From an uncultured Thermoanaerobaculia bacterium (GTDB taxonomy: Bacteria > Acidobacteriota > Thermoanaerobaculia > Multivoradales > CAZRFU01): 64,000 nucleotides of DNA. Under the pieces are notes generated by a model that searched no databases, was not told the origin of the DNA, and saw only the letters and a program-made list of their open reading frames with translations. Shown here piece by piece: positions 11,279-37,278 of this stretch. Position numbers and translations under genes: made by a program. The DNA is taken from positions 33,828 to 97,827 of the forward strand of contig CAZRFU010000001.1 of assembly GCA_964599475.1 (NCBI GenBank), written 5' to 3'. Each line of letters opens with the position of its first letter. Within the stretch, counting starts at the first letter, position 1.

Positions 11279-11323
11279 AGCGGCGCTATCGAGCCGCCGC
11301 TCCAGATCATCGAGGAGCCACCC

Positions 11324-11905: not shown

Positions 11906-11960
11906 TCGGATCTTTGAACCGACCCGCGCACGCCGCGCGGGCTGACTGAGGAGAATTGCC

Positions 11961-12365: not shown

Positions 12366-12371
12366 CCATCC

Positions 12372-22425: not shown

Positions 22426-25251
22426 TTAGCCGCGCAGACTCATATCGAGGGGCGAGAAGGAAGGGTGAACGGGGGGCGGGCGGAACAGAGGGCCTCGTCC
22501 CTTGCCAGTTCCCCGTCCCTCTTCCCCCCAAACACAACGGCCGCGCTCATCGCGCGGCCGTTGCCCAATCCGGAGGAGCGGCGAGCTCAGGGAGCGTCGA
22601 AGCCGAACTTCTGGTAGTTCATCCCGATGTACTTCTTCCACTCGTCCGGGACCTCTTCCATTGGGAAGATCGCCTGAACCGGGCAGGCATCGACGCACAG
22701 GCCGCAGTCGATGCATTCCTCGGGATGGATGAAGAGTTGGTTCCAGTCCTCGTTCTTGCCATAGATGCAGTCGACCGGGCAGACATCCACGCAGGATGTG
22801 TCTTTCACGTCGACGCACGGCTCGGCGATGATGTGGGGCATCTCGGGTCCTTTCGTTGGCCAGCGCGAGAACATGCTCGCTCGCTGCGGATTCTAGCAGG
22901 GGGACCAAGGTACCGGGTACCAGGTACCGGGTACCCGTCGGAGCGCCGGAGGCCTCTTCCGAGCGGTTCCCCATGCACCCCTCCGTGGTGCACCCCGGAG
23001 GATGAAAATCAAGCCCGCCGTCCGGTCTCCGTTCCGGCCCGGTCCCGGGTCCCCGGTCCCCGGTACCTCCCGCCCGGGCCTTCAGCCATGCCACAGCGGC
23101 CTCCAGCACCTCGTCGCGGCCGGCAGCGATGCCGGCGCGGGTTGGTGTCACGACGACGTCGGGGATGACTCCGCGTCCGCGGATGTTGCCGTCTGGACCG
23201 TGGGCAGACATCCCGGTGAAGTAGAGGCGATAGCCCGCCGGGAGCCACAGGCCGGTGAAGTTGCCGTTGGTACCGGCAGACGGGCTGCCGACGATGGTGG
23301 CGAGGCGCTGTTCGGCGAACATGGTGAGGAGGGTTTCGGCGTAGCTCAGGGCGTTGTGGTCGGCCAGCACCACGATCGGGGCGCGGAGCCGCGGTTCGAG
23401 CGGCGGCACGGTCCACCGCGAGCATTGCGGAATGCCGGCGCCCGGCCGGTCGCGCTCCGGGATGCAGAACTGGGGACCCGCCAGTGGTCGATCGCTCAGA
23501 TGGCCGAGTTTGGATTCGGAGATCACTGGATACCCGCGCAGGTCGAAGATCACGCCGGTTGCTGCGGCGAGCCTCGGCAGGACTTGCTCCCAGGTGGTGT
23601 CGTCGACCCGCCGCAGGTCGAGCGAGAGCACGCCATCAGCCTCGACCCGCAGGCTCGGCCGTTCGTCGACCAGGAGCTTGCCGAGGCTGCCGGCCGGTCG
23701 AGCGGCAAGCGCGACCGTGCGCCGTGCTCCGTCGATACCCTCCGCCTCGACCTCGACCAGGTGTGGGGCTGAGCGCAGGACCAGGTTCTCGAGGGCACGA
23801 GCACGTCGGTGGGGCTCGGTCGCGCCGGCGGTTCGTGCGAGGGCGTCGAGCAGGGCTTGATCCATCGTCCGCCCGTCGAAGCGAAGGAGCCGATCGCCGA
23901 CTCGCACCTCAGAAACGTCGTCGGCGGTGCGAGTGACGACGACCTCGCCATCGATGTCGGCCACGAGGAAGGGCAGGCGGAACTCGCGGCCACCCTCGGG
24001 CCGCCCGAGCAACGCGTGACCGTCGTTGGTCGCACCGACCAGGCGCTCGAGCGCGTGGGTCGCCTCGCTCGCCGAGCCCGCAACGGCGAGCTCGCGCAAG
24101 GCTCGCCGCAGGACGTCCTCCCACGCGGCGGAACCGGGTGGACGTTCGGGATCGAACTGCTCGAGCACGCCCCAGGCGAGAATCGCCGTGGCCAAGCGGG
24201 TCGACCGATCTGTCGCCGACGGCGCCCACCCTGCTGGGCGTACCGGGATCGGGCCGGCTGCCGGCGCCCCGGTGGCGCAGGTGTCGAGGGGGATGTCGGC
24301 CTCGAGTCCCTCGCCGAGATCGACCGTGGCGCGACGCGCGTCGGTGGTGGGGACGAAGCTGCTGCGAAGCTCGAACGCCGCCATCGGCACGTCGAAAGGT
24401 GCGCCCAGGTAGGTGCGCCGGTGCGAGCCACCCGGGCAGAGCGACGACCCCTGTCCGCTCGGCGAAGCTTCGATCGACAACCCCGGTGCGAGTGGGCCGA
24501 GAGTGGCCATCAGTGCTTCGGCCGGAACCCCTGGGTGGTTCTCCACCTGTTCGACGGCGGCGATGGCTGCGAGATCCCAATCGACCGGCGGATCCGCAAC
24601 CGGGCCGAAGAAACGCAGGATCGAAAGCAGGCGTGCGAGCATCACCAGGCGGGTTTCGCCATCCGCCGAGAGCGGCGCGGCAGATTTATCACCCATGCCG
24701 AGGGCGATCCCAACCTTCGCGTCGAGATCGGCGAGGCCGAAAGTGCCTGCGCCGAAGGCCGCGACCTCGATCAGCACCGCATCAGCGTCGTCGCCGACCT
24801 CGACGACGAGCCCGGCCGGCGCCCATGTGTTGGGCAGTCCGCGGCCGGGACTTTCGACGCGAAACAGGCGTTCGCCGCTGTCCTTGACCGCGGTGGCAAT
24901 CAGCCGAGCGACCCCGCTGTGTTCGGGTTGCGGTGCGGACCAGGTCAGGGCGCGCAGGTGGAGCCTGTGCCCCCGCCACGGTGTGGCGTCGACACGCTGG
25001 ACCAACCGTGCAGCCGGTACCAGAGGTCCCGTCGCCCGCTCGCAACGCAGGACCGCCGCCCACCGGCCCCCCAGCCGCTCGCGCTCGAGTGCGCAGGCGC
25101 CGCCGGTCCGATCGTCGAGTTTCCACGCCTCGAGCGCCGCAGGACGGGAGAAGTCACCACGGATCGCAACCGCTCCCGCCTCCGGCGACTCGGGTGCCGT
25201 GCCGCTACCGAGGGTGGCGATCGCCAGTACCACCGTGCCGAGCCGCGGCAC
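22426..25251 (-). CDS. S41-family C-terminal processing peptidase (tail-specific-protease-like); the 3' end reads through a repeat insertion
   Basis: The probable start is GTG at 25251, immediately after the DUF72 stop, followed by a signal peptide (VPRLGTVVLAIATLGSGTA). S41 blocks are present (DLRGYPVISE, ADHNALSYAETL, SPSAGTNGNF, GVIPDVVV). The homologous part ends near 23070 (AVAWLKARAGG). No in-frame stop occurs until 22426, so the frame continues through the repeat and antisense to fdx. The 3' boundary is uncertain. Confidence 0.55.
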   Translation of the reverse strand: MPRLGTVVLAIATLGSGTAPESPEAGAVAIRGDFSRPAALEAWKLDDRTGGACALERERLGGRWAAVLRCERATGPLVPAARLVQRVDATPWRGHRLHLRALTWSAPQPEHSGVARLIATAVKDSGERLFRVESPGRGLPNTWAPAGLVVEVGDDADAVLIEVAAFGAGTFGLADLDAKVGIALGMGDKSAAPLSADGETRLVMLARLLSILRFFGPVADPPVDWDLAAIAAVEQVENHPGVPAEALMATLGPLAPGLSIEASPSGQGSSLCPGGSHRRTYLGAPFDVPMAAFELRSSFVPTTDARRATVDLGEGLEADIPLDTCATGAPAAGPIPVRPAGWAPSATDRSTRLATAILAWGVLEQFDPERPPGSAAWEDVLRRALRELAVAGSASEATHALERLVGATNDGHALLGRPEGGREFRLPFLVADIDGEVVVTRTADDVSEVRVGDRLLRFDGRTMDQALLDALARTAGATEPHRRARALENLVLRSAPHLVEVEAEGIDGARRTVALAARPAGSLGKLLVDERPSLRVEADGVLSLDLRRVDDTTWEQVLPRLAAATGVIFDLRGYPVISESKLGHLSDRPLAGPQFCIPERDRPGAGIPQCSRWTVPPLEPRLRAPIVVLADHNALSYAETLLTMFAEQRLATIVGSPSAGTNGNFTGLWLPAGYRLYFTGMSAHGPDGNIRGRGVIPDVVVTPTRAGIAAGRDEVLEAAVAWLKARAGGTGDRGPGTGPERRPDGGLDFHPPGCTTEGCMGNRSEEASGAPTGTRYLVPGTLVPLLESAASEHVLALANERTRDAPHHRRAVRRRERHILRGCLPGRLHLWQERGLEPTLHPSRGMHRLRPVRRCLPGSGDLPNGRGPGRVEEVHRDELPEVRLRRSLSSPLLRIGQRPRDERGRCVWGEEGRGTGKGRGPLFRPPPVHPSFSPLDMSLRG
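22523..22561 (-). terminator. Rho-independent-type terminator downstream of the ferredoxin gene
   Basis: A 10-bp perfect stem (ACGGCCGCGC / GCGCGGCCGT) has a 5-nt loop. On the minus strand it is followed by TTGTGTTTGGGGGG. Confidence 0.5.
22587..22841 (-). CDS. 7Fe-type ferredoxin (FdxA-like)
   Basis: The start is ATG at 22841 (MPHIIAEPCVDVKDTSCVDVCPVDCIY...CIDCGLCVDACP). It has the classic [3Fe-4S][4Fe-4S] cysteine spacing. Confidence 0.85.
   Translation of the reverse strand: MPHIIAEPCVDVKDTSCVDVCPVDCIYGKNEDWNQLFIHPEECIDCGLCVDACPVQAIFPMEEVPDEWKKYIGMNYQKFGFDAP
22901..23070. repeat. Composite repeat: (GGTACCN)4, variant linker, core hairpin element, then (GGTCCC/GGTCCCC) units
   Basis: The core at 22968-23032 (ttccccatgcacccctccgtggtgcaccccggaggatgaaaatcaagcccgccgtccggtct) is identical to the copies at 14760 and 14880. 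Confidence 0.85.
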
Positions 25252-25252
25252 T

Positions 25253-25957
25253 TCAGTCGCCGGCCAACTCGACGAAGCGCTGGGCCAGTTTGGGCCCGAT
25301 GCCCCCGTCTTCGTGCTTGAAGAATACGTACGCCTCGGCGAGACCCGCGGCTCGCAGCCGTTCGAGCCAGGCAACCAAGCGTGCCTCGTCGTAGGCTTCG
25401 CGGCGCAGCCGCACATAGGCAAAGCGTGCGGTGACCGCCACCTCGGGTTCGGGTGCGTCGTCGACGTCGGCGGTGCACCAGGAGCACGCGCCGTGGCTGC
25501 GGACCAGCTCGAGCACCGCCGGATCCGACCAGCTCGGATGGCGCATCTCGAGGGCACAGGGCAGGCCGGCCGGCAGGTCGGCGAGGAAGCGCGCGAGGCG
25601 GTCGTCGTCGCGCCTGAGGTTCGGTGGGGTCTGGAACAGGATCGGGCCGAGCTTCGGGCCCAAGGCCTGCGCCTGTTGGCAGAGGTATGCGACGTTGTCG
25701 GCGGTGTCCTTCAAGCGCGCAATGTGGGTGATCTTCTGCGACGCCTTGAGCACGAAGCGAAAGTCGTCCGGCACCTGCGCCGCCCACCCTTCGAGCACCG
25801 ACGTTTTGGGCATGCGGTAGAAGGTGTTGTTGATCTCGACCACTCCGAGGCGTTCGGCGTAGTAGCCGAGCATCTGGTCGGGTTTGATTCGCTCGGGGTA
25901 GAAGGACCCCTTCCATTCGGGGAACGAAAATCCGCTGGTGCCGGCGAAGACCTTCAT
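25253..25957 (-). CDS. DUF72 (YecE/UPF0759) family protein
   Basis: The 234-aa product contains INNTFYRMP and a TIM-barrel-like DUF72 signature. Confidence 0.75.
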   Translation of the reverse strand: MKVFAGTSGFSFPEWKGSFYPERIKPDQMLGYYAERLGVVEINNTFYRMPKTSVLEGWAAQVPDDFRFVLKASQKITHIARLKDTADNVAYLCQQAQALGPKLGPILFQTPPNLRRDDDRLARFLADLPAGLPCALEMRHPSWSDPAVLELVRSHGACSWCTADVDDAPEPEVAVTARFAYVRLRREAYDEARLVAWLERLRAAGLAEAYVFFKHEDGGIGPKLAQRFVELAGD

Positions 25958-25987
25958 CGAGAGCTCCTTGTGCCCGGTTCGGTGCGC

Positions 25988-26887
25988 CTAGGCTGCAGCG
26001 GGTGAGCCCACCAGGAGCGCCGCTTCGAGCCGGGCCACCAGGGCCGCGACCTCGAGGCGCGAGACCTTGGCGCCGGCACCGTCACGTTCGACCCGGTCGA
26101 GGGTGGCGCGGGCGAGCAACACCGGCAGCGCACAAAACGCCACGACACCTTTGGGGGCTTTGTGTTGTTGGAGCAGGTGCACGTATTCGGTGGCGCGTTC
26201 GAGGTCGGCGCGGGCGATGGCGAAAACCTCGGTGCGATCAACCGACCGCGGCACGTAACAGCGGCCTTCGCCGCGATCGTCTTCGGCGTCCTTCAAGATG
26301 TTGACCAACTGGAGGCCTTCACCGAAGGCGCGCGATCGCGATCGCAGGGCCTCGGCACCGGCGGCCAGTTGGGGGCGGCCGAGCAGGAAGAGCTCGGTCA
26401 ACATCTCGCCGACGATGCCCGCGACCACGTAGCAGTAGTCGCGCAGATCGTCGAGGGTCTCGAGCGTCAGCGAGCCCGCATCGGCTCCGCTCGCGACGAA
26501 TCGCGCCATGCCGGCGGCGCTGCCGTCCAGGTGCCGATGAAGGATCGACCGCGCGTCATCGCCGAGCTCGCGGAAGGCCTGCATCACCCGGGGCGTTTCG
26601 CGCAGCAGCTCGAGGTACCCAGGGTGCTCGAGCGGCGGCTGGTGCAGCCACCCCTCCGCCTCTGCCACCGCCTCGAGTGCCGTGGGGCGCTCGAGCAGGG
26701 TGCGAAAGCCCTGGAGCTCCCGCACCCGACGATCCCGGCCCCAGGCCACCGCGTCCTCGAGGGTGTCGGCGATGCGGAACAACAGGTAGGCAACCGTCAC
26801 CTGCCTCCGCGTCGGTTCGGGCAGCCGGGGAATCGACAGCGCAAAGGTGCGGCTGGTGCGTTCGAGCAGCTCGTCGAGAGTGGGCAC
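25988..26887 (-). CDS. Squalene/phytoene synthase family protein (HpnC/HpnD- or CrtB-like)
   Basis: Trans-IPPS head-to-head motifs are present: the first Asp-rich region is LFRIADTLED, the second is DYCYVVAGIVGEM, and there is a LQLVNILKD block. Confidence 0.75.
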   Translation of the reverse strand: MPTLDELLERTSRTFALSIPRLPEPTRRQVTVAYLLFRIADTLEDAVAWGRDRRVRELQGFRTLLERPTALEAVAEAEGWLHQPPLEHPGYLELLRETPRVMQAFRELGDDARSILHRHLDGSAAGMARFVASGADAGSLTLETLDDLRDYCYVVAGIVGEMLTELFLLGRPQLAAGAEALRSRSRAFGEGLQLVNILKDAEDDRGEGRCYVPRSVDRTEVFAIARADLERATEYVHLLQQHKAPKGVVAFCALPVLLARATLDRVERDGAGAKVSRLEVAALVARLEAALLVGSPAAA

Positions 26888-26963
26888 GGGGGAATGATAC
26901 CCAAGGCGCTCGGTGCACGGAGCCGGCGGTACAGTCGAGCCCGACTGTCTCGCCCGTTCCCAC

Positions 26964-27671
26964 TCACTCGAGCCAGCGAACCCTGCCGGAGCCGATGTCG
27001 TGGATTGCGCCGACGACCTCGAGCTCTCCGGCCTCGATCAGTTCCCGGATCAAGCTGCTGTCGCGGCGAATCCGCTCGACTGTCAGGCGCACGTTGGTTT
27101 CGGTGACCGCGGCAACGAAGGCCGGGTTCGAGCCACTTCGCGGCTCCGGCCCAGGGGTCGCGGCGACCGCCGGTTCGATCTGGTCGAGCAGGCCGGTGAG
27201 GTGGCCGAGCTCGGCACCGTCACAGGCGCCGACGATCGCCCCGCAGTGATCGTGACCCAGCACCACGACCACTTTCGATCCCATCAACTTGGTGGCGAAC
27301 TCGAGGCTGCCGAGCAATTCGTCGGTGACGATGTTGCCGGCGATCCGGCCGACGAAGAGGTCTCCAAGCCCTTGGTCGAACACCAGCTCGGGAGAGGCAC
27401 GCGAGTCGAGGCAGGCGATCACCGCGGCGAAGGGCCGTTGGCCGGCGGCGCTGCTGGCACGTTCGGCCTTCCAGTTGCGAGCCTTGAGGTGGTCGGTCGT
27501 CCAGCGTTCGTTTCCGGCCCGCAGGCGCTCGAGGGCCTGACGCGGCGTCATCGCCTGCTGGTCGGCCTGCGACAAGGTGGTGGTGCGGGGTGCCGGACCT
27601 CGATGGGCGCAGCCCCCGAGGACGGCTACGGACAGGAATCCTCCAAGGAACACTGATGTCACGCGCTGCAT
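26964..27671 (-). CDS. Beta-class carbonic anhydrase with a lipoprotein-type signal peptide
   Basis: The start is ATG at 27671 (MQRVTSVFLGGFLSVAVLGGC). The zinc ligands are CLDSR ... HDHCGA. Confidence 0.8.
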   Translation of the reverse strand: MQRVTSVFLGGFLSVAVLGGCAHRGPAPRTTTLSQADQQAMTPRQALERLRAGNERWTTDHLKARNWKAERASSAAGQRPFAAVIACLDSRASPELVFDQGLGDLFVGRIAGNIVTDELLGSLEFATKLMGSKVVVVLGHDHCGAIVGACDGAELGHLTGLLDQIEPAVAATPGPEPRSGSNPAFVAAVTETNVRLTVERIRRDSSLIRELIEAGELEVVGAIHDIGSGRVRWLE

Positions 27672-27740
27672 CGTCGTCTCCGGAGCAGTTTCGGCCAGTG
27701 TAGCGGATCGCCGAGGTCGGGTGCAGGGCCCGGGTTGCCC

Positions 27741-27782
27741 TGCGGCGACCGATCCATGCTCCGATCCCCGATCCCCGATCCC
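27741..27782. repeat. Short (GATCCCC)3 tandem array
   Basis: The sequence is ccgatccatgctccgatccccgatccccgatccccc, between the carbonic anhydrase start and the end of the isoprenoid operon. Confidence 0.5.
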
Positions 27783-27783
27783 C

Positions 27784-28584
27784 CTAGGCCCGCGGTACCA
27801 GCGTGCCGACTCGCCCCTCCCGGCGCAGAGCGGAGGCGAGGGCGCCGGGCGTCGTCCCATCGAAGATCCAGGACTCGACGCCGCTGCGCGCGAGCTCGAG
27901 GGCGGTATCGACCCGCAGCCTCACGCCGCCGGTGACATCGACGCCGGCGGCGCCCGCAAGGGCGTGGTCGAGCTCGGCTCTTCGTTGCTGATCGACCAGT
28001 GGGACCAGCTCGCCGTTCCGGTCGAGGATGCCTGGCGTGGCTCCTGCCCACAAGGCTCGGTCGACTCGCCAGCCGGTCTGCGGCAAGGCGTCCACCAAGG
28101 CTGCGAAGACCTGCTCGGTCGAGGCGATGGTGGTTCCAAGGCGCGCGTCTGCGACGATATCTCCGCAGACCACGGGGATCGCCCCAGCCTCGAGGGCTCC
28201 GGCCAGGGCGTCGACCGAGGCCATGAGTACACTGCCTCCGGCGAGGGTGAGCCAGGCAGCTGGGCGCAGAGACAGCGCCGGCAGCCGCGCTGTGACCAGC
28301 GCACTGAGAAGAAGTCGGTGAAGCTCTCCAGCGGCGAGTTGAACTCGGGCAGCCGCAAGCGTTCGCGCAGCTCCGGTGCGCTCGCGAAAGCGGTGTCGAT
28401 GGGCGGCCCAGTGGCCGAAGGAGCCGCTGCCGTGCCCCAGGATCACCGCCGGCGCGTCGGGTCGGGCGGTGACTGAGGTGAGCTCCTCGGCCAGGCGCTC
28501 GATCACCTCGCGGCGCAGCGCCCGCGGCCGCTGCTTGTCGGTCAGCAGGCTGCCCCCGAGCTTGACCAGCGTGACCGGCCGCAT
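27784..28584 (-). CDS. Isopentenyl phosphate kinase (amino-acid-kinase fold)
   Basis: The start is ATG at 28584 (MRPVTLVKLGGSLLTD...). It has the KLGGS motif and a His-containing IPK-type region (ILGHGSGSFGH). It is the last gene of the isoprenoid operon. Confidence 0.7.
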   Translation of the reverse strand: MRPVTLVKLGGSLLTDKQRPRALRREVIERLAEELTSVTARPDAPAVILGHGSGSFGHWAAHRHRFRERTGAARTLAAARVQLAAGELHRLLLSALVTARLPALSLRPAAWLTLAGGSVLMASVDALAGALEAGAIPVVCGDIVADARLGTTIASTEQVFAALVDALPQTGWRVDRALWAGATPGILDRNGELVPLVDQQRRAELDHALAGAAGVDVTGGVRLRVDTALELARSGVESWIFDGTTPGALASALRREGRVGTLVPRA

Positions 28585-29585
28585 CAAAACAGGTGCTCGG
28601 AGCTGATCGCAGGTCCGTTGCCGACGTGGTCGCTGATGACCTCCTCGACGCCTGGAACCGCGCGCAGGAGCGCTGCCAGATCGGCCGCCGACCGGCTTTC
28701 GCAGATCGCGTGGACGTTGGCTCCGGCGTCCATCGTCGCCCAGGCCGGCAGGCCGTCCCGGCGGGCCCGGCGGACCGCTTCGAGCACCGCCAGGGTGGCC
28801 GGGCGCCAGTAGAAGATCGGCGGCCGCGACGACATCGCGATCAGGTGCAGCTCGATCGCCTCCTCCTCGAGCACCGGGCCGAGGAGGTCGAGGCGGCGTT
28901 CTTCGATCGCCAGTCGGACGGCGGCCAGACGGGTCGGCAGCAGGTTGCGACGGGTCTCGAAGTGGGGGCTCGTCGCGGCGCGGCGATGACCGTCGATCGA
29001 GGCGACGTCCTTCTCGGCCGTTTCGACGACCGCGATCACGTCGGCGAGATCCCAATGGGAGGCTGGGAAGAGGGATGCCGCCGGGGCGTCGGGGTCGTCG
29101 CCCGGAGGGGCCGGCCACTCGACATATCCGCCGAGCACCGACCGGCTGGCCGAGCCCGAGCCCGACAGCCGCGCGCGGATCGACAGCTCCCGCCCACTCG
29201 GCTGCTCTCCGAGAGCGCTCGAGACGGCGGTGGCGAGAGCCGCAAAACCGGAGGCCGAGCTTGCCAGGCCGGCAGCGGCAGGGAAGCTGTTGCGGGTGGC
29301 GACGCGGAAGCCGCGGCCGGTGCCGATGTGCGCGCGCAGACGCTCGAGATGTGCCAGCACCCGGGCGGCGAAGCGTTCGGGTGCCACTCTGGCGGTACCC
29401 AGGGAATCGATCAGCTCGATCGAGTCGGCGGCGCCCTCTGGCAGCGCTTCGACCGTGGTCGTGGTGGCGCAGACCGACAGAGTCATCGAGATCGACGGAT
29501 CGAGCGGCAGCGCCGAGCTCAGGTCGCGGGCGCCCCAATACTTGACGAAGGCGATGTTGGCCGGGGCGACGATGGTGGTCTTCAT
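28584..29585 (-). CDS. Diphosphomevalonate-decarboxylase-family enzyme (MVD or phosphomevalonate decarboxylase)
   Basis: The start is ATG at 29585 (MKTTIVAPANIAFVKYWG...). It is a GHMP-kinase-fold MVD family member (SSASGFAALA). It overlaps its neighbours by 1 nt on each side. Confidence 0.8.
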   Translation of the reverse strand: MKTTIVAPANIAFVKYWGARDLSSALPLDPSISMTLSVCATTTTVEALPEGAADSIELIDSLGTARVAPERFAARVLAHLERLRAHIGTGRGFRVATRNSFPAAAGLASSASGFAALATAVSSALGEQPSGRELSIRARLSGSGSASRSVLGGYVEWPAPPGDDPDAPAASLFPASHWDLADVIAVVETAEKDVASIDGHRRAATSPHFETRRNLLPTRLAAVRLAIEERRLDLLGPVLEEEAIELHLIAMSSRPPIFYWRPATLAVLEAVRRARRDGLPAWATMDAGANVHAICESRSAADLAALLRAVPGVEEVISDHVGNGPAISSEHLF

Positions 29586-30664
29586 CAGGTCTCCTCGAGG
29601 CGTGCGCCGACGGCGCCGAGTGTGGTGGTCAGGGGCGACCAACCCAGTAGGGCTGGCTCGAAGCGCTCGAACGGATCGTGGGCGAGGACGGCGCCCGCGC
29701 CGGGATCGGACAGCGCACCAGCGCCCGAGATCTTCGCACTGATGCCTCGCCGACCGAGGGCCTCCAGCTGTTGACGGACTGCGGGTGGTACCACGCCGAG
29801 GTGTTCGAGTGCCTGTTCGCAGTCGTCGATGGCCACCGCCAGGTTGCGGCCGTCGCCCGCCACCAGCGCATCGCGCAGCCGGTGGGTGGCGGCGCCGATT
29901 CGATCGTTGGCGGCCTCGACCACATCCGGGTGCAGGTTGGCGAGTCGTCGAACGGCAGCGACCACCGCTCCAGTGGTTTCGTTGGGGCGCCCGGAATCGG
30001 CCAGCGCCAGATGACTGAGGAGCTGCGGTTCAGCGACCACGGGACTGACCTCGAGCTGCTCTCCCCAACCCGCTCCTTGGTCGTCGGCGCCCGCAGCCAA
30101 CCGACGGCTGATCCAACATACGCCGCCGTGGAGCACTGCGGCGTTGTCGATCCCCGATGGCCGGCCGTGCTGCAGCCGCTCGACCGCGAGCGAGGCGTCG
30201 AAGAGTGTCGCGGGCTCGAGGAGGTGCCCCAGTGCCGCTGAGCCGGCTTGGAGCACCGCCACGGCCAGGGCGGCTGAGCTTCCGAGGCCGGCGCCGAGAG
30301 GGATTTCCGAGGTGACCACGAGCCTCAGCGCCGGCATCCGGTCGATGGCGAGGCGACGACCGAGCTCGTGCAGCGTCGCAGCGATGTGCGCGAGCGGGTC
30401 CTTGGTCCCGAGCGGGGCGCCGGGGTCCGCGCACCAGCGATGCCAGGCAGCCTCCGCGGCTTGGGCGAGGTCGTGTGCGCGGTCGCACGCGAGGTCGTGG
30501 CGGGTGCCTGCGAGGTGGATCTGGTGGTTGGTGCCCGCGACGGTTGCCGCCTCCACGCTCAGCCGCAACCCGATCGCAGCGATCAGGGCGGGCCGGCCCC
30601 ACACCGCTGCGTGTTCTCCGGCCAGGATCGCCTTCCCCGGCGCCGAGGCGACCGCAGCAGGCAT
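29585..30664 (-). CDS. mvk: Mevalonate kinase (GHMP kinase)
   Basis: The sequence APGKAILAGEHAAVWG and the GHMP motif PLGAGLGSSAAL are present. Confidence 0.8.
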   Translation of the reverse strand: MPAAVASAPGKAILAGEHAAVWGRPALIAAIGLRLSVEAATVAGTNHQIHLAGTRHDLACDRAHDLAQAAEAAWHRWCADPGAPLGTKDPLAHIAATLHELGRRLAIDRMPALRLVVTSEIPLGAGLGSSAALAVAVLQAGSAALGHLLEPATLFDASLAVERLQHGRPSGIDNAAVLHGGVCWISRRLAAGADDQGAGWGEQLEVSPVVAEPQLLSHLALADSGRPNETTGAVVAAVRRLANLHPDVVEAANDRIGAATHRLRDALVAGDGRNLAVAIDDCEQALEHLGVVPPAVRQQLEALGRRGISAKISGAGALSDPGAGAVLAHDPFERFEPALLGWSPLTTTLGAVGARLEET

Positions 30665-30671
30665 CGTCGGA

Positions 30672-31955
30672 TCAGCCGCCGAGCTCTTCGGGCAGACGCC
30701 CGCGCCCCAGACGCTCGTGGGCGCGAGCGAGGTCCTGGCTGGTGAAGGCCGCCATCAACGACAGCTCCGAGGCCAACACGACGGCACCGAGGATCTCGGC
30801 GAGCCGGCGCACAGCCGCACCGGGCCGCTCCGGATCCGGCACCACTCCGAGCATCGACAGAGCTTCTCGTTGGGTGTCGAGCCCGGTACCGCCGCCGACC
30901 GCGCCGAGCGGCACATCCGGCAGGAAGATCGAGAAGTGTGCAGCGTGGTCGGGCCGCTCTTCGATGCAGGTCACCCCTTGCGAGGCGCCGACGACGTGAG
31001 CGAGGTCTTGACCCGTCGCGATGAAGAAGGCAGCGACCGAGTTGGCGAAATGGGCGTTGAAGCCCTTGGCGCCTGCTGCGATCGAGCCCAGGAGGTTCTT
31101 GCGGTACTGCACCTCGACCAAGCCCACGGCCGAGGTCTTGAGTACGTCGTGCAGCACCTTCTCGGGCAGCAGCACCTCGGCGTGGATGCGCTTGCCGCGA
31201 CCCTCCTGGAAGTTGATCGAGGCCGGCTTCTTGTCGATGCAGAAGTTCCCGGACAAGGCGACGCAGTGGACGCCGGTCTCCTTCTCGATGTACTCCTGCA
31301 CGATGCGATCGCACGCGATCGTCGCCATGTTCATGCCCATGGCGTCGCCGGTGGCGAAGCGGAACCTCAGGTAGACCGAGGTCGAAAAGGCAAATGGCTT
31401 GATATCGAGCAGCCGCAGATGCCGGCTGGTTGCCGCCGCCAGCTCGCGCATGTGGTCGGTGTGAGCCTCGACCCACGCAAGGAAACGCCGCGTTTCGTCG
31501 ATGCCGCCGGTGTGGAAGACCGGGGCGCGGGTCATGCCGACGTCTTCGACCGAAACCCGCACCCCGCCGGCGGCGCGGATCGCAGAACAGCCGCGGTTGG
31601 TGCTGGCGACGAGCGCACCCTCGGTCGTGGCCAGGGGGACGTAGACCTCTTCGTTGGTGATGTCGCCGCGGACAGCGAGGGGTCCGACGATCCCCATCGG
31701 GACCTGGGCCACGCCGAAGAGGTTTTCGCAGTTGCGGCGCGACGCGCGTTCGGTGTCGAAGCTGTGGTGCCCGAGGTTCGGCAACTCGACGTGGCACATC
31801 GCCTCGATCGCGCGTCGGCGGATGTCTGCAGCCAGGGCGGCGGGAAGCTCGCGCGGGAGCTGGTGGAAGCGCAGGTCTCCGGAGACCAGGGCGGTCACCA
31901 GCTCGTCGGCGAGCGGGGCGGATTCGGCGGGAAGGGACGAGGTGCGCGCCGTCAT
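30672..31955 (-). CDS. HMG-CoA reductase (class I type)
   Basis: The start is ATG at 31955 (MTARTSS...). The signatures are ENLFGVAQVPMG, DAMGMNM and GTGLD...GVV. The longer ORF in the track is a GC artefact upstream of this start. Confidence 0.9.
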   Translation of the reverse strand: MTARTSSLPAESAPLADELVTALVSGDLRFHQLPRELPAALAADIRRRAIEAMCHVELPNLGHHSFDTERASRRNCENLFGVAQVPMGIVGPLAVRGDITNEEVYVPLATTEGALVASTNRGCSAIRAAGGVRVSVEDVGMTRAPVFHTGGIDETRRFLAWVEAHTDHMRELAAATSRHLRLLDIKPFAFSTSVYLRFRFATGDAMGMNMATIACDRIVQEYIEKETGVHCVALSGNFCIDKKPASINFQEGRGKRIHAEVLLPEKVLHDVLKTSAVGLVEVQYRKNLLGSIAAGAKGFNAHFANSVAAFFIATGQDLAHVVGASQGVTCIEERPDHAAHFSIFLPDVPLGAVGGGTGLDTQREALSMLGVVPDPERPGAAVRRLAEILGAVVLASELSLMAAFTSQDLARAHERLGRGRLPEELGG

Positions 31956-33007
31956 GGCGCCTCCTTTCGGATCGGAGCAGCGGCGCGCAGAGCCGTCGCG
32001 TTGGCGGCGCCCACACAGAACATGGCGATTTCGAGCTCGAGGCGCAGACGATCGATGCGCTCGGCGACGCGGTCGGGCGACTCCATCGCGGCCTCGAGGA
32101 AGGGTTGGGCGACGCCCACGAGATGGGCACCCAAGGCGATGGCCTTGGCGGCGTCGAGTCCCGAGCGAATCCCGCCGCTGCCGATCACCGTGAGCCCCTC
32201 GATGGCGGCCAGGGCGCGGATGGATTCGGGGGTGTCGATGCCGAGCTCCCCGAACATCTCCGCCAGCTCGGCGTCGTCGGCGCGGGCCGCTTCGATGCGG
32301 GCCCAACTCGTACCGCCGACGCCGGCGGTATCCAGGATCCGTACGCCGCGCGCGGCCAGGGCCCGGCCGACCTCGGCCGAAAGCCCGCTGCCGACCTCCT
32401 TGACGATCACCGGCACCGGCAGGGCCGCGGCGACGTCGCCGATCTTGTCGAGCAAGCCGGCAAAGTTGCACTGGCCCTCCGGCTGGAGCGCCTCCTGGAG
32501 CGGGTTCAGATGCAGCACGAGGGCGTCGGCCTCGACCATCTCGACTGCTGCGCGACAGTGGTCGATGCCGTAGCCGTAGTTGAGCTGGACCGCTCCGAGG
32601 TTGGCCAGGATTGGCACCGACGGGGCGGCGTCCCGCACCCGGAAGGTCGAGGCGAGCTCCGGCTGCTCCAGGGCCTTGCGCTGCGAGCCGACGCCGAGGG
32701 CGACGCCGCGGTCCTGTGCGGCGATCGCGAGCCGACGGTTGACGTCGGCTGCGATCTCGGTGCCGCCGGTCATGCAGGAGATCAGCAGCGGCAGCTCGAG
32801 GCGATAGCCGAGGAATTCCGTACCGAGGTCGATCTGCGCGCGGTCGATCTCCGGCAGGGCCGAGTATTCGAGCCGCCAAAGATCGAACGCGCGGCGTCGA
32901 CCCTGCATCGCAGGCTCGAGGGCGAGCCGAATGTGGTCGGCCTTGCGGTCGATCGGCTCGGCCGATGCCGCCAACGGGTGCGGACGCTTCATCCTCGGAA
33001 TCGACAT
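31952..33007 (-). CDS. fni: Type 2 (FMN-dependent) isopentenyl-diphosphate isomerase
   Basis: The start is ATG at 33007 (MSIPRMKRPH...). It has the FMN-binding TIM-barrel motifs VIVKEVGSG and GSGGIRSG. It overlaps the HMGR start by 4 nt. Confidence 0.85.
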   Translation of the reverse strand: MSIPRMKRPHPLAASAEPIDRKADHIRLALEPAMQGRRRAFDLWRLEYSALPEIDRAQIDLGTEFLGYRLELPLLISCMTGGTEIAADVNRRLAIAAQDRGVALGVGSQRKALEQPELASTFRVRDAAPSVPILANLGAVQLNYGYGIDHCRAAVEMVEADALVLHLNPLQEALQPEGQCNFAGLLDKIGDVAAALPVPVIVKEVGSGLSAEVGRALAARGVRILDTAGVGGTSWARIEAARADDAELAEMFGELGIDTPESIRALAAIEGLTVIGSGGIRSGLDAAKAIALGAHLVGVAQPFLEAAMESPDRVAERIDRLRLELEIAMFCVGAANATALRAAAPIRKEAP

Positions 33008-33087
33008 GATCGGGGACGCTCGGGAGAGCGTCGGCGGATCATAGCAGTAGCCTTGCAGCCTTCCGCCGACCGGGCACGCGGTGCTCG

Positions 33088-33114
33088 AGTACCCGGTACC
33101 CGGTACCCAGTACC
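33088..33114. repeat. (GTACCCG)3-type tandem array
   Basis: The sequence is gagtacccggtacccggtacccagtacc, upstream of fni. Confidence 0.5.
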
Positions 33115-33183
33115 TTGGTGGTGGTGCAGGGCCGGTGCTTTCCGGTCCAATCTGGGTGGGCCACGGAGAGGCCTGTGATCGAA

Positions 33184-34899
33184 TCAGCGGCCGTATTCGA
33201 GGGCCTGCAGCTCGAAGGTCGCTGGGGTGGGAGTCTGCGGTCGGCAGCGCACCGAGAGCTCGTAGAGGAAGATTTGATCGTCGCCCCACCACATCCGATG
33301 ATGGGCCCGCAGGTGCGGCTCGAGGTCCACCGTGCGGATGCCTGCGCCCTGCTCGGTCCGCAGCTGGGTGACTCCGCCGAGATCGAGGGTGGTGCTCGGA
33401 TCGCCACCCGTCAGACGCAGGCGCAGCACCGACACCGGCTGGGCCGAGCCGATCAGGAGGTGGCCGCGGACCAGCGCTGGGCAGGTCAGCGATCCCTCGA
33501 GGGGAAGGACGCCGCGGTCGAGGAATTTGATCCACAGGTTGTGGTGCACGATGTCCTCGATGCCGGCGGGCTTGAGGTGGCTCTGCGTGGTCTCGTAGGG
33601 GAGCAGGGCCCTGGCCGCCGGTGTGACCCAGCGGTAGCTGCCGTCCGGCCCGTAGGGTGCTGCGCGTGGGGCGACCCAGAGCGGCCAGATGAAAGGCGCC
33701 GCCACCAATGCGACCGCCGCCGCTGGCCAGGGACGCGTGACCCGCGTCGGGACGAACCACAGCGCCGGAAGCAGGGGCATCAAGTAGCGATTGGCGAGCG
33801 ACCCGCCGCCCCCCCAGAAGTTGATTGGGCGGTTGAGGGCGAAGAACAGCATCGCCAGAGCGAACGCTGCGACCAGGCTCCAGGCCAAGGCGCCGCGAGG
33901 TCGGCCGACCAGGAGCAGAAGGACGGCGGCAAAGTAGGGGAGCAAACCGACGTGGCGGCCGACGAGGGTGTAGAGGAGATTCCAGCCGAGGCGGTCGGCG
34001 CCCCAACGGGCGACCTCGACGGCGCCGGCGGGGCCTTCCCACGCGGCGTCGTCACGGGTGTCGTCGAAGCGCGCCCGTGCTGCAGGTCCACCCGCGCCCA
34101 CGTCCGGCCACCCGGTGTGAGCGTAGAAGCTGCGTCGTTCGCCGCCGTAGGCCGAGTAACTTCCCGTGCGGGAGCTCTGCGACCACAGCAGCCCTCCCGA
34201 CACCAGCACGGCGCCCAACACGAACGCACCTGCCGCGGCCCGCCGCCGGCGCGGCGGCAGGGCAACGATCACGGGAAGCAGCAGCACTGCGTAGGGAGGG
34301 CGGCTCCAGATCACCGCCGCCAGCAGGGCACCGGCAAAACACCACGGGATCCAGGCGAAGGAGCTCGGCCGGGAGAAGCGGTTGCGCTCTCGTTCCTGCA
34401 GTTCAGCAGCCATGATCGCGGCCAGCGCCAGAGCAACCAGGGCCATCGAGAGGAGGTCCGAGTGGGCCCAGAAAACCCACGCGAAGGTGACCGTTGCGAA
34501 GACGTGGGCGGCAATCCAGGTCGCGGCCCAAGGGCCGGTGCGGGTCGTCAGGGCGAACGCGGCGCACAGCGCCGCCAGGCTCAGGGCGAAGGCGTTGGCG
34601 ATGAAGGGCCCCTGTCGCCCGAACAGGGCCACGAACGGGGCGGCATAGAGGGGCCAGAGCACCGGCTTGCCGTAGAACAGATCGCCGTTGGGGCCGCGCT
34701 GCAGGATCAGGCCCTCGGGCTCCACTTTCCAGCGCTGGCGGAAGCGCTCGAAGTCGTCGGCGGTGTAGCGGTAGTCGCCGTCGAAAGCGAGGCTTTCGGC
34801 GGCCATCAGGTAGGTCGCTTCGTCACCGACCAGAGTCGGCCAGGTTCCGCGGTCGATCGTGGCCGCACCCACGAGGAGGGCAACGGACAGCGCTACCAA
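33184..34899 (-). CDS. GT-C-fold membrane glycosyltransferase-like protein (PMT/ArnT-like first-loop DE motif)
   Basis: It has about 12 TM helices. The N-terminal loop DEATYLMAAESLAFDGDYRY resembles the GT39/GT83 catalytic loop. The true start may be further upstream. Confidence 0.5.
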   Translation of the reverse strand: MVALSVALLVGAATIDRGTWPTLVGDEATYLMAAESLAFDGDYRYTADDFERFRQRWKVEPEGLILQRGPNGDLFYGKPVLWPLYAAPFVALFGRQGPFIANAFALSLAALCAAFALTTRTGPWAATWIAAHVFATVTFAWVFWAHSDLLSMALVALALAAIMAAELQERERNRFSRPSSFAWIPWCFAGALLAAVIWSRPPYAVLLLPVIVALPPRRRRAAAGAFVLGAVLVSGGLLWSQSSRTGSYSAYGGERRSFYAHTGWPDVGAGGPAARARFDDTRDDAAWEGPAGAVEVARWGADRLGWNLLYTLVGRHVGLLPYFAAVLLLLVGRPRGALAWSLVAAFALAMLFFALNRPINFWGGGGSLANRYLMPLLPALWFVPTRVTRPWPAAAVALVAAPFIWPLWVAPRAAPYGPDGSYRWVTPAARALLPYETTQSHLKPAGIEDIVHHNLWIKFLDRGVLPLEGSLTCPALVRGHLLIGSAQPVSVLRLRLTGGDPSTTLDLGGVTQLRTEQGAGIRTVDLEPHLRAHHRMWWGDDQIFLYELSVRCRPQTPTPATFELQALEYGR

Positions 34900-34999
34900 C
34901 AGCAGCAGTGGCCAGCGTCGCCTGGGGAAAACCGAGAGGTCGGGACGTGACGAAGGAATCGGGTGGCTCCAGGAGGCAGAGAAATGTGCCGATATGAGC

Positions 35000-35815
35000 T
35001 TAGCGCTTGTTCTCGCGGCCGGTCCACGTCACCATGCTGGTCGAGGCGCCGAAGAGATCCGAAACCCGATCCGAGATCGACCGCGGCAGCAGGGCCATGA
35101 TCGCCGGGGTGACCTTCACCATCCATGGTTCGAGCACCGCCACCTGTCGCCGACGCACTGCCTTGACCACCAGTTTGGCCATGCGCTCCGGGGTCAGCAG
35201 GGGCGTGAGCAGCGGTGGTCTGACCCCTTCGAACATGCCCGTGGCGACGTAGCTCGGGCAAACCGTGGTCACACCGACATGGCGATGGCCGAGACGCAGC
35301 ATCTCCATTCGGATCGACTCGGAGAAGCCGATGACGGCCCACTTGCTCGCGGCGTAGGTGGAGCCGAACGGCAGGCCGAGGAAACCCGAGGCGCTCGCCA
35401 TGTTGACCAGGTGGCCTTCGGGAGCGTCGATCAAATCACCGAGGAAAGCGTGCGTTACCGCCACCACGCCGTCGACGTTGACGCGGAAGGTGGCCTGGTG
35501 CCGCTCGATCGGCACCTCGAGGAAGGGCCCTCCGAACACCACGCCCGCGTTGTTGATCAGGACGTCGACCCGTCCGTGCTCGCTGCGGATGCGGGCGCGG
35601 GCGGCTGCAATCGACTCGAGATCGGTGACGTCGAGGGTGACGCAGCCGGCGCGCGGGCCGAGCTCGCCGGCAGCGGTGGTCGCTGCCGCGCCGTCGAGGT
35701 CGGCGATCACCACCGCCGCGCCGGCGGCGCTGAATTGGCGCGCCATTTCGAGGCCCATGCCTCGGGCCCCGCCGGTGATCAACACGGTCTTGCGGTCGAG
35801 GGTCTTCATCGCCAC
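35000..35815 (-). CDS. Short-chain dehydrogenase/reductase (SDR)
   Basis: The motif TGGARGMG matches TGxxxGxG, and NNAG and the YxxxK catalytic tetrad are present. Confidence 0.85.
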   Translation of the reverse strand: MAMKTLDRKTVLITGGARGMGLEMARQFSAAGAAVVIADLDGAAATTAAGELGPRAGCVTLDVTDLESIAAARARIRSEHGRVDVLINNAGVVFGGPFLEVPIERHQATFRVNVDGVVAVTHAFLGDLIDAPEGHLVNMASASGFLGLPFGSTYAASKWAVIGFSESIRMEMLRLGHRHVGVTTVCPSYVATGMFEGVRPPLLTPLLTPERMAKLVVKAVRRRQVAVLEPWMVKVTPAIMALLPRSISDRVSDLFGASTSMVTWTGRENKR

Positions 35816-35866
35816 CGATCTCCGGAAAGGAGGTCCGGCAGGATCTCCGGCCGGACCTCCGAGTGA

Positions 35867-36469
35867 TCAGGCTGCGGCGTAACGCTGAGCGACAGCCTGC
35901 CAGTCGATGACGTTCCAGATCGCGGTGAGATAGTCGGGCCGCCGATTCTGGTAGTTCAAATAGTAGGCGTGCTCCCAGACGTCGATGCCGAGGATCGGGG
36001 TCTTGCCCTGCATCAGCGGGCTGTCCTGGTTCGGCGTGGCAAGGACCTCGAGGCGCCCGTCGGCTACCACGAGCCAGCCCCAGCCCGACCCGAACTGTCC
36101 GGCAGCGGCGGCGTTGAGCTTCTCGCGCAGCGCTCCGAAGGAGCCGAAGTCGCGGGCGATCGCCTCTGCGAGGCTGCCGCCGGGCTCCCCGCCGCCACCG
36201 GGCCCGAGGATCTCCCAGAACAGGGTGTGGTTGGCGTGTCCGCCGCCGTGATTGCGCACCGCGGTCTTGATCGCGTCCGGCACCGCGTCGAAGTTGCGCA
36301 GGAGGTCCTCGACGGGCTTGCTCTGGAGATCCGGATGGGCTTCGAGCGCCTTGTTGAGATTGGTGACGTAGGCCGCGTGGTGTTTGCCGTGATGGATTTC
36401 CATCGTCCGCGCGTCGATGTGCGGCTCGAGGGCGTCGAAGGCGTAGCCAAGGGGTTTGACCTGGTGCAT
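35867..36469 (-). CDS. Fe/Mn superoxide dismutase
   Basis: The sequence [10 protein letters not shown]...DVWEHAYY carries the canonical SodA/SodB metal ligands. Confidence 0.9.
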
Positions 36470-36581
36470 CGGGGTCTCCTCCGTGTCGTGAATCTTCAGT
36501 CGGGCCGCATCAGACGTGCCCGCACCCTCATCCTATCGCGTCACGACGAGCGGCGACCGACCTGCTCGGCGAGACTGCCCA

Positions 36582-36610
36582 TTGACACGCTTTCGCCGCG
36601 AGCGTAGAAT
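36582..36610 (+). promoter_or_regulatory. Sigma-70-type promoter for the tRNA-Val/tRNA-Asp/rpmG unit
   Basis: The TTGACA box, a 17-nt spacer and TAGAAT end 18 nt before the mature 5' end of tRNA-Val. Confidence 0.5.
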
Positions 36611-36627
36611 GCGCGTCGCTCTGCCGG

Positions 36628-36700
36628 GGGAGGTTAGCTCAGCGGTTAGAGCACCTGCCTTACACGCAGGGAGTCGGGGGTTCGAATCCCTCACCTCCCA
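36628..36700 (+). tRNA. tRNA-Val (anticodon TAC)
   Basis: A cloverleaf was folded by hand. The acceptor is GGGAGGT/ACCTCCC, the anticodon loop is CTTACAC and the T-loop is GGTTCGAAT. CCA is not encoded. Confidence 0.85.
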
Positions 36701-36724
36701 GAGGGTTGCGGGGTTCTTTGGAAC

Positions 36725-36801
36725 GGAGCGGTAGTTCAGTCGGTTAGAATGCCGGCCTGTCACGCCGGAGGTCGCGGGTTCGAGCCCCGTCCGCTCCGCC
36801 A
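36725..36801 (+). tRNA. tRNA-Asp (anticodon GTC)
   Basis: The acceptor is GGAGCGG/CCGCTCC, the anticodon loop is CTGTCAC and the T-loop is GGTTCGAGC. The 3' CCA is encoded. Confidence 0.85.
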
Positions 36802-36854
36802 ATTCCACCCTTCGCATCTGCTCCCGATCTCAGCTTCGACATCCGAGGTTCATC

Positions 36855-37010
36855 ATGCGCGACAAGATCAAGCTCGTCTCGTCGGCCGGTACCGGCTACT
36901 TCTACACGACGACCAAGAACAAGAAGACGAGCACCGAGAAGCTCAAGATGATGAAGTACGACCCGAAGGTGCGCAAGCACGTCGAGTTCGTCGAAGAAAA
37001 GCTTCGCTGA
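36855..37010 (+). CDS. rpmG: 50S ribosomal protein L33
   Basis: The 51-aa product is [51 protein letters not shown]. It is absent from the ORF track because it is under 60 aa. Confidence 0.85.
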
Positions 37011-37037
37011 GTCTCGCGTCGGCCCTCGACCTTGTGG

Positions 37038-37067
37038 TACGCTCGCGTCTGCGAGCGTTTTGTTTTT
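37038..37067 (+). terminator. Rho-independent terminator after rpmG
   Basis: A GC hairpin (acgctcgc gtct gcgagcgt) is followed by TTTTGTTTTTT. Confidence 0.65.
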
Positions 37068-37278
37068 TCAGGCGGGTGAATCGGACAAGATGGTCTGATC
37101 GCTGCGGGCTGTCTCCTCCACAGGAGTTCAGCTCATGTCGATCAGCTCTGTTCGCGCTCAGGATGTGTACGCGCAGGGGTCGCCCGACCCTTGTTCGCTC
37201 CCGTCCTGTTCGGTCGTTCCGCCGCCTACCCTCGCCGCGCCGAGCCACGCCTCCAGCCTCGATCTGGCAACCAAGCCG

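Follow-up and report, generated by a model that had tools for sequence, protein, structure and literature searches.

A Conserved Five-Gene Operon in Thermoanaerobaculia (Acidobacteriota) Probably Encodes the Lower Half of a Mevalonate Pathway Running Through Isopentenyl Phosphate

The Operon and Its Five Genes

In a 64-kb stretch of contig CAZRFU010000001.1 from an uncultured, soil-type Thermoanaerobaculia bacterium (phylum Acidobacteriota), referred to here as the window, the minus strand between positions 27784 and 33007 carries five consecutive genes for isoprenoid biosynthesis (Table 1). In the order in which they would be transcribed, they encode a type 2 isopentenyl-diphosphate isomerase (IDI-2), a 3-hydroxy-3-methylglutaryl-CoA (HMG-CoA) reductase (HMGR), a GHMP-family mevalonate kinase (MK), a decarboxylase of the mevalonate diphosphate decarboxylase (MVD) family, and an isopentenyl phosphate kinase (IPK). 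We consider it probable, at roughly 80%, that this operon constitutes the lower half of a mevalonate (MVA) pathway of the haloarchaea/Chloroflexi type, in which the decarboxylase would be a phosphomevalonate decarboxylase (PMD, also called MPD) and not a mevalonate diphosphate decarboxylase (MDD, also called DMD). The MPD route is an established form of the mevalonate pathway in haloarchaea. It has likewise been established, as the MPD/IPK route, in Chloroflexi (PMC3857490).

All five open reading frames (ORFs) are intact. Gene starts were placed by inspection of the start codons, and the same product lengths (351, 427, 359, 333 and 266 aa) were obtained in independent gene calls on metagenome contigs carrying identical genes; IDI-2 has a further possible ATG at 32992. 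The IDI-2 and HMGR genes overlap by 4 nt (ATGA), and the sequence AAGGAGG precedes the HMGR ATG. At both the MK/decarboxylase and the decarboxylase/IPK junction, the stop codon of one gene and the ATG of the next overlap by 1 nt (TGATG), and the base that IPK shares with the stop of the decarboxylase gene implies that the two are translationally coupled. The original prediction, made from the sequence alone, had described all junctions as overlaps of 1–4 nt, which is true of these three, but HMGR and MK are separated by a 7-nt spacer (TGA-TCCGACG-ATG). Scans for promoters and terminators gave matches no more numerous than in shuffled sequence, and an Rfam search of positions 25000–37500 found two tRNAs and nothing else. 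The boundaries of the operon rest on spacing; the five genes are read as a single operon, all in one direction and for the most part coupled in translation.

Table 1. Genes of the mevalonate operon and the two genes that follow it.
Feature	Position	Strand	Product and remarks
IDI-2/fni	31952..33007	minus	type 2 FMN-dependent isopentenyl-diphosphate isomerase, 351 aa; first operon gene
HMGR	30672..31955	minus	HMG-CoA reductase, class I NADPH type, 427 aa; catalytic domain alone, soluble
MK	29585..30664	minus	divergent GHMP mevalonate kinase, 359 aa; sole GHMP kinase found in window
Decarboxylase	28584..29585	minus	MVD-family ATP-dependent decarboxylase, predicted PMD/MPD, 333 aa
IPK	27784..28584	minus	isopentenyl phosphate kinase, amino-acid-kinase fold, 266 aa
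Carbonic anhydrase	26964..27671	minus	beta class; lipoprotein-like N-terminus (…AVLGGC); PF00484, NF011765
Squalene-synthase-like gene	25988..26887	minus	squalene/phytoene-synthase family protein; PF00494, 144.8 bits

The set of five functions and the class of the reductase were correctly anticipated from the ORFs alone and are borne out by the family models. IDI-2 scores 373 bits against TIGR02151 (cut-off 281) and also matches PF01070. HMGR is of class I, with 442.7 bits against the model for the NADPH type (TIGR00533, cut-off 441.8) and 385 bits against PF00368, versus just 31 bits against the class II model TIGR00532. IPK scores 132.2 bits against NF040647 (cut-off 120), and the top six of its eight matches in the Protein Data Bank (PDB) are IPKs (7LNT, 8U0K, 3LL9, 3K4O; 76–94 bits, 7LNT at 94), with the kinase FomA weaker at 50 bits. 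The residues conserved in IPKs are, in Methanocaldococcus jannaschii numbering, K6, G8, G9, K15, H60, D213, T215 and G216 (PMC3857490, Table 2). In the window protein, K8, G10, G11 and K17 align with those of solved IPKs and the motifs KLGGS, TDK, GSFGH (with His57) and DVTGG are kept; judged by model cut-off and signature residues, the 266-aa protein is a bona fide IPK.

The MK assignment requires more comment. The best family of the 359-aa kinase is TIGR00549, at 151.4 bits under a cut-off of 163.05; its orthologues in relatives score 138–153 bits, and the model for phosphomevalonate kinase (PMK), TIGR01220, gives 27.5 bits. Mevalonate kinases account for 11 of its 13 PDB matches, including the top nine, all of them weak (54 bits or less), and its motifs APGK..GEHA, GLGSSAA and SGxD align with those of solved mevalonate kinases, so the protein is treated here as a divergent mevalonate kinase. 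A fused or bifunctional MK/PMK was considered and rejected, the kinase being a single GHMP domain. The exact MK, HMGR and IDI-2 sequences carry no source-given name in the database listing. With MK below the trusted cut-off and three of the proteins unnamed, automated pathway reconstruction may overlook several steps in these genomes.

The absence of a second GHMP kinase from the operon, which the original prediction had noted, extends to the rest of the window as far as it was scanned. Of 54 predicted genes, 49 were searched against Pfam, and neither a second GHMP kinase nor an animal-type PMK, an HMG-CoA synthase or a thiolase was found among them; the absence of the last two from the window had also been foreseen. 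The five ORFs outside the scan are short, three lying at the window ends (1–348, 63265–63588 and 63747–63998) and two in the interior.

The Decarboxylase

The decarboxylase matches PF22700 and PF18376, and against all solved structures its nearest relative is the PMD of Anaerolinea thermophila (6N0X/6N0Y; 228.6 bits, ~42% identity), the only PMD that has been solved (PMC9254496). The best true MDD is that of Enterococcus faecalis (5V2L; 159.9 bits, 36% identity), and the MDDs of Staphylococcus aureus, S. epidermidis, yeast and human score 119–134 bits. The catalytic residues R148, K192, S196 and D286, equivalent to S. epidermidis R144, K188, S192 and D283, are present and are invariant in the acidobacterial clade to which the protein belongs; with this set intact, it is predicted to be an active ATP-dependent decarboxylase, and the retention of Asp286 excludes a loss of the catalytic Asp of the kind seen in mevalonate-3-kinases.

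Guidance on substrate specificity comes from Dellas et al. (2013), who tabulated six phosphate-binding positions in the MVD family (PMC3857490, Table 4). At one of these, Lys21 of the S. epidermidis enzyme, in the YWGK motif, contacts the terminal phosphate of mevalonate-5-diphosphate (MVAPP); MDDs of bacteria, Sulfolobales and eukaryotes have Lys there, and enzymes of the MPD-like kind have Leu, Met or Tyr (PMC3857490). In a pairwise alignment, the equivalent of Lys21 in the window protein is Ala19, in the motif YWG-A19-RD, where A. thermophila has YWG-N-RD, and Ala19 is found in 90% or more of the 27 clade members, so that the lysine of the MDDs is missing here as it is from PMDs. His200, invariant among the 27, aligns with His198 of the A. 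thermophila PMD, where the MDDs of E. faecalis and S. aureus have Met (S-R-x-G-M segment). These are the same two positions at which the engineered A. thermophila enzyme 6N0Z departs from the wild type, its only differences being Asn24Lys and His198Met, and Thomas et al., as recorded in PMC9254496, used mutagenesis to give the PMD the specificity of a DMD. A rule has been formulated in which DMDs carry a conserved Lys and PMDs a conserved His (PMC11052028). MDD-type specificity residues had been named beforehand as one half of what would speak against the original prediction; the residues examined do not speak against it, Ala19 standing where the MDDs have Lys and His200 being of PMD type. Going by its residues and its nearest structure, the enzyme is most likely a phosphomevalonate (mevalonate-5-phosphate) decarboxylase.

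Conservation of the Operon in Acidobacteriota

One scan of the GTDB species-representative genomes, with the clade alignment as query, yielded 80 loci with 10-kb flanks, the ORFs of which were searched with the window proteins. All 28 Acidobacteriota loci have the order IDI2-HMGR-MK-decarboxylase-IPK with a single kinase and short spacers or overlaps, although some are clipped by a contig edge, and IPK adjoins the decarboxylase in 27 of them, the exception (L038) stopping at a contig edge right after the decarboxylase. Among the names they go under are Thermoanaerobaculia, ‘uncultured Acidobacteriota’ and Ca. Multivorans; a single bin has the label Gemmatimonadota. Precomputed Pfam labels give the same gene order in L089 and L090, on contigs of 4.36 Mb and 588 kb, one of which has a polyprenyl synthase ahead. 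In the 28 loci the 10 kb to either side of the decarboxylase contain no PMK, nor is there one among the genes called in L089 and L090, and in a Pfam census of the flanks neither HMG-CoA synthase nor thiolase nor PMK recurred among the most frequent families. The partnership with IPK, and the lack of a PMK beside it, is thus seen in the operon, in the window and in the ±10 kb of 30 relatives.

The flanks also point to where the isoprenoid units may go. In 21/28 Acidobacteriota loci the fetched flank has a gene of the squalene-synthase family on the downstream side of IPK, and loci with such a homologue include L007–L029, L061, L089 and L090. The commonest upstream neighbour is a polyprenyl synthase (17 loci, in L009–L029; also L090). 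The conserved squalene-synthase-like gene suggests a combined mevalonate-to-squalene module with a triterpenoid sink. Squalene-hopene cyclase genes were noted upstream in two loci, and cytochrome P450 genes in four.

Position 19 and Gene Context in Other Phyla

The loci from other phyla made it possible to set the residue at position 19 against the company that the decarboxylase keeps. In most Chloroflexota loci the decarboxylase stands alone, in agreement with the scattered MVA genes reported for Chloroflexi (PMC6107057), whereas in a set of loci from metagenome-assembled genomes (MAGs) of the candidate phyla radiation (CPR) and of gammaproteobacteria two MK-like kinases precede the decarboxylase and IPK is absent. 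The latter arrangement occurs in L032, L036, L043–L045, L047, L048, L052, L058, L065 and L071. There were 46 informative loci, 35 of them linked to IPK and 11 with two kinases and no IPK. Position 19 is non-basic in 34 of the 35 IPK-linked decarboxylases and basic (Lys or Arg) in 10 of the 11 others, an association with a Fisher p of 3e-8, and of 0.001 when the acidobacterial clade is counted as one observation. The lone IPK-linked exception is L031, a 6.3-kb contig of a Paceibacterota MAG, in which IPK comes directly after a Lys19 decarboxylase; on so short a contig a second kinase may have been cut off.

The label PMK for the second kinase of such loci was not upheld by the models: in those tested, both kinases pass the MK cut-off while no PMK cut-off is reached by either, and it is called here a second MK-like kinase. 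The presumed PMK of the two-kinase lineages would, by this result, be an MK-like paralogue misnamed by current models. Two CPR loci (L055 and L086, from Roizmanbacteria and Microgenomates MAGs) have MK, a decarboxylase with Gln19 and IPK in overlapping genes, and yet group with the two-kinase relatives carrying Lys/Arg19 in a neighbor-joining (NJ) tree, at 43/100 bootstraps. This suggests that residue and context may switch together, in what looks like an independent DMD/PMD gene-set switch within CPR. In the same tree (100 bootstraps), the acidobacterial clade was recovered in 100/100 replicates and was never in an exclusive clade with the Firmicutes MDDs, and A. thermophila was placed with Anaerolineae in 82/100.

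The Proposed Pathway and Its Alternatives

In the proposed pathway, the class I HMGR would make mevalonate from HMG-CoA, itself the product of an HMG-CoA synthase that would be encoded elsewhere, and the single GHMP kinase would convert mevalonate to mevalonate-5-phosphate. Acting directly on mevalonate-5-phosphate, the MVD-family enzyme would then carry out an ATP-dependent 3-phosphorylation and a decarboxylation to yield isopentenyl phosphate, to which IPK would add the second phosphate, giving isopentenyl diphosphate (IPP), and IDI-2 would interconvert IPP and dimethylallyl diphosphate (DMAPP); the products would probably pass to the squalene-synthase-like enzyme encoded just downstream. 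That IPK with a single decarboxylase and no PMK fits this route had been stated in the original prediction, and it has gained support from the match to 6N0X, from Ala19 and His200, from the coupling of IPK to the decarboxylase and from the position-19 pattern. The proposal builds on gene content, order and coupling, on protein families and active-site residues, and on conservation across the class, all of them observed; what we infer from these is which substrate the decarboxylase takes, that the genome has no PMK, and where the IPP goes.

Several observations weigh against this proposal. A PMK could lie outside the 64-kb window, and the class is not uniform, since the cultured Thermoanaerobaculum aquaticum has the methylerythritol phosphate (MEP) pathway (PMC5462960). 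Among the six positions of the Dellas table, that of Lys21 alone discriminates here, Ser143, Ser145 and Ser196 being common to MDDs and the A. thermophila PMD and hence uninformative. His200 is a weak marker, His being present also in 6/11 of the two-kinase-linked relatives. An Arg at the position of S. epidermidis Ile27 and Roseiflexus castenholzii Arg83, carried by the PMDs of Chloroflexi and haloarchaea, has been proposed, from a homology model, to bind the single phosphate and to exclude a second one sterically (PMC3857490), but the equivalent here is Ala25, other clade members having Ala, Val or Pro, and with Ala25 instead of the excluding Arg MVAPP may fit. The position already varies within Chloroflexi, however, where it is Arg or Thr (PMC3857490, Table 4). 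The NJ tree, finally, does not settle which lineage is sister to the acidobacterial enzymes.

It is also against the proposal, and in favour of a classical pathway, that the decarboxylase exceeds the cut-off of the ‘diphosphomevalonate decarboxylase’ model TIGR01240 (199.7 bits; cut-off 171.35) and that JGI and NCBI give this type of protein that name, as do all the named entries among its closest homologues (58–65% identity, from Acidobacteriota/Thermoanaerobaculia MAGs). In a classical pathway the decarboxylase would be an MDD, a PMK, possibly not of the GHMP family, would be encoded elsewhere in the genome, and IPK would serve salvage only; the three serines fit the MDD column of the Dellas table, organisms with both a classical pathway and IPK are known, e.g., Sulfolobus and plants (PMC3857490), and 64 kb is all of the genome that was read. 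The proven A. thermophila PMD, however, has the same serines and also passes TIGR01240 (282.7 bits), which makes the pass uninformative. The haloarchaeal MvaD model NF040704 is of no more help, for the window protein reaches 135 bits under a cut-off of 475, and the A. thermophila PMD, at 196.8 bits, fails it as well, so that the model is specific to haloarchaea. Taken together, these controls indicate that membership in a family model cannot separate PMD from DMD, which explains the database name. Further arguments against a classical pathway are the replacement of the lysine that binds the beta-phosphate by Ala19, the Lys or Arg that relatives beside a second kinase have at that position, and the place of IPK, translationally coupled to the decarboxylase in the window and directly after it throughout the clade. 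Bacterial MVA genes, PMK included, normally form one cluster (PMC6107057), yet the flanks of the relatives hold no PMK, and we regard the classical pathway as quite unlikely.

The lack of both the MDD lysine (Ala19) and the excluding Arg or bulky residue of the R. castenholzii MPD (Ala25) in this clade (PMC3857490) would also suit a decarboxylase of dual specificity, a PMD/DMD intermediate accepting both mevalonate-5-phosphate and MVAPP. The IPK branch would then carry the main flux, and a classical branch would be possible given a kinase that makes MVAPP. Chloroflexota enzymes with the same pattern of no Lys and a His have been cited as active on both substrates (PMC11052028), while for the R. 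castenholzii MPD itself kcat/KM for MVAPP was below detection. No MVAPP-making kinase is present in the operon, the window or the flanks of the relatives, however, and an activity on MVAPP would lack its substrate unless a PMK lies elsewhere; dual specificity in this sense seems unlikely. IPK is common to all modified MVA pathways, and with MK slightly under its family cut-off a Thermoplasma-type pathway, the archaeal anhydromevalonate variant or a decaying, non-functional cluster might be entertained. Mevalonate-3-kinases lack the catalytic Asp that is kept here (PMC9254496), the bisphosphomevalonate decarboxylase (MBD) model gives 25.6 bits under a cut-off of 560, neither an AcnX-type dehydratase nor UbiD/UbiX was found in the window, and five intact ORFs conserved in 28 or more genomes argue against decay, all of which makes this last group of explanations highly improbable.

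Surroundings of the Operon

The operon is embedded in chromosomal housekeeping genes (LigA, ClpB, DnaJ, trigger factor-ClpP-ClpX-Lon, Rho, ThyA and DHFR), and its GC content of 0.70–0.71 compares with 0.62–0.71 across the window. The 90%-identity cluster to which the Rho protein belongs includes entries under the NCBI name ‘Thermoanaerobaculia bacterium’. A recently acquired horizontal island was considered and rejected because of this GC range, these neighbours and the conservation of the operon across the class.

The squalene-synthase-like protein of the window has TIGR01559 as its best family, at 101 bits and under the cut-off; its top PDB matches are squalene synthases (50–56 bits), it is closest to the eukaryote type, and its name at JGI is farnesyl-diphosphate farnesyltransferase. 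It is a likely consumer of the isoprenoid units of the operon. Between its gene and IPK sits the gene for the beta-carbonic anhydrase, which is present at this place only in the same-species contigs L001–L004, while elsewhere in Acidobacteriota IPK is followed by the squalene-synthase-like gene with no carbonic anhydrase in between. The carbonic anhydrase gene is probably a lineage-specific insertion and no component of the pathway, and its position beside a decarboxylase that releases CO2 is probably a coincidence. Upstream of IDI-2, a 571-aa polytopic membrane protein (33184–34899, minus) with no Pfam match and a weak match to the putative glycosyltransferase model NF047440 (22 bits) occupies the position that the polyprenyl synthase has in the 17 related loci; the window as a whole yielded no polyprenyl synthase.

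Other features of the window were recorded in passing. On the plus strand, 11270–13586 encodes a PhaR-type regulator (PF07879), a phasin (PF05597) and a patatin-like phospholipase, with no polyhydroxyalkanoate (PHA) synthase in the window, and 16564–18621 is a 685-aa ORF with no Pfam match. A 941-aa ORF (22426–25251, minus), with a weak C-terminal Peptidase_S41 match only, has its start abutting a DUF72 gene that is itself downstream of the squalene-synthase-like gene. Further away, 61003–62160 (minus) encodes a 385-aa protein matching several families of baeRF (bacterial archaeo-eukaryotic release factor; PF18845, 93 bits), flanked by small ORFs without family matches. A 94-nt tRNA-Asp called by ARAGORN at 52200–52293 (minus) falls within the trigger-factor gene (51451–52677, plus) and, from its length and location, is probably a false positive.

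Relation to Known Systems and Significance

With the Chloroflexi MPD/IPK systems (R. castenholzii MPD, A. thermophila PMD) the operon shares MK, a lysine-less MVD-family decarboxylase, IPK and, within the window, the lack of a PMK, and with the A. thermophila enzyme in particular the His and the Arg of the YWGxR motif. It differs from them in its host, an acidobacterial class, in being one tight operon where the Chloroflexi genes are scattered, in having HMGR of class I where HMGR-II is reported (PMC6107057), and in the decarboxylase itself, where position 19 is Ala and not Leu, Asn or Val and the equivalent of Arg83 is Ala25. The order of reactions, with decarboxylation of mevalonate-5-phosphate first and IPK second, would be that of the haloarchaea (Haloferax volcanii MvaD and IPK), and IDI-2, like class I HMGR, is typical of archaea; the bacterial host, the other organisation of the operon and the low score against NF040704 set it apart from haloarchaea. 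The mvaK1-mvaD-mvaK2 operon of Firmicutes has identical catalytic residues in its decarboxylase and likewise clusters MK and decarboxylase with IDI-2 (fni), but it has mvaK2 (PMK) where this operon has IPK, its decarboxylase has the Lys that is Ala here, its HMGR is of class II, and the Firmicutes MDDs (S. epidermidis, S. aureus and E. faecalis) are more distant at 134–160 bits.

A precedent within the phylum is the acidobacterial MAG Mor1 (subdivision 22) of Sinninghe Damsté et al. (2017), in which whole-genome BLAST searches detected no MEP pathway, only ‘most genes’ of an MVA pathway, and a squalene-synthase homologue (PMC5462960). Their gene-definition table has IDI-2 (orfD), hmgcR, mvK and mvD, and neither PMK nor IPK; the word phosphomevalonate is absent from their supplement, so that no PMK appears there (PMC5462960), which speaks for the MPD route. 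The shared genes (IDI-2, HMGR, MK, MVD and the squalene-synthase homologue) make the Mor1 cluster like the present one. The 2017 study differs from us in its interpretation, having taken the cluster as an incomplete classical pathway and its decarboxylase as an MDD, with IPK unmentioned (PMC5462960). It was the sole relevant account returned by a literature search for Acidobacteria with mevalonate or IPK, and a search for Thermoanaerobaculia with mevalonate found none. Chloroflexi have been stated to be the only bacterial phylum with the MPD/IPK route (PMC6107057), and a survey of 2024 lists, among bacteria, only Chloroflexota (PMC11052028). The pathway type itself is already known, and no new kind of enzyme or mechanism is involved; what would be new is its occurrence in Acidobacteriota, in the form of an operon and with its key enzyme mislabelled in databases.

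A broader proposal, which we hold tentatively and at somewhat less than even odds, is that a large and mostly uncultured acidobacterial lineage (Thermoanaerobaculia and allies, including ‘Ca. Multivorans’) has the MPD/IPK route as its sole source of IPP, encoded in a mobile polyprenyl-synthase-IDI2-HMGR-MK-PMD-IPK-squalene-synthase module, with specificity for the monophosphate achieved through Ala19 and Ala25, unlike in Chloroflexi. If this proposal is right, the statement that Chloroflexi are the only such bacterial phylum would be overturned, and a second, independent bacterial data point on the interconversion of PMD and DMD specificity would be available. Even the narrower finding, of moderate interest to those who work on isoprenoids or on annotation, would, if true, mean that hundreds of ‘diphosphomevalonate decarboxylase’ entries in the clade are mis-annotated and that reconstructions based on them falsely show the pathway as incomplete, as was the case with Mor1 in 2017. 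The correspondence of position 19 with gene context in Acidobacteriota, Chloroflexota and CPR would supply a simple and testable rule for telling PMD from DMD, and HMGR, MK, PMD, IPK and IDI-2 would together be a five-gene bacterial cassette for engineering the alternative route. For the organisms themselves, it would mean that a whole acidobacterial class joins the bacteria with the MPD/IPK route, and does so with a compact operon suited to transfer.

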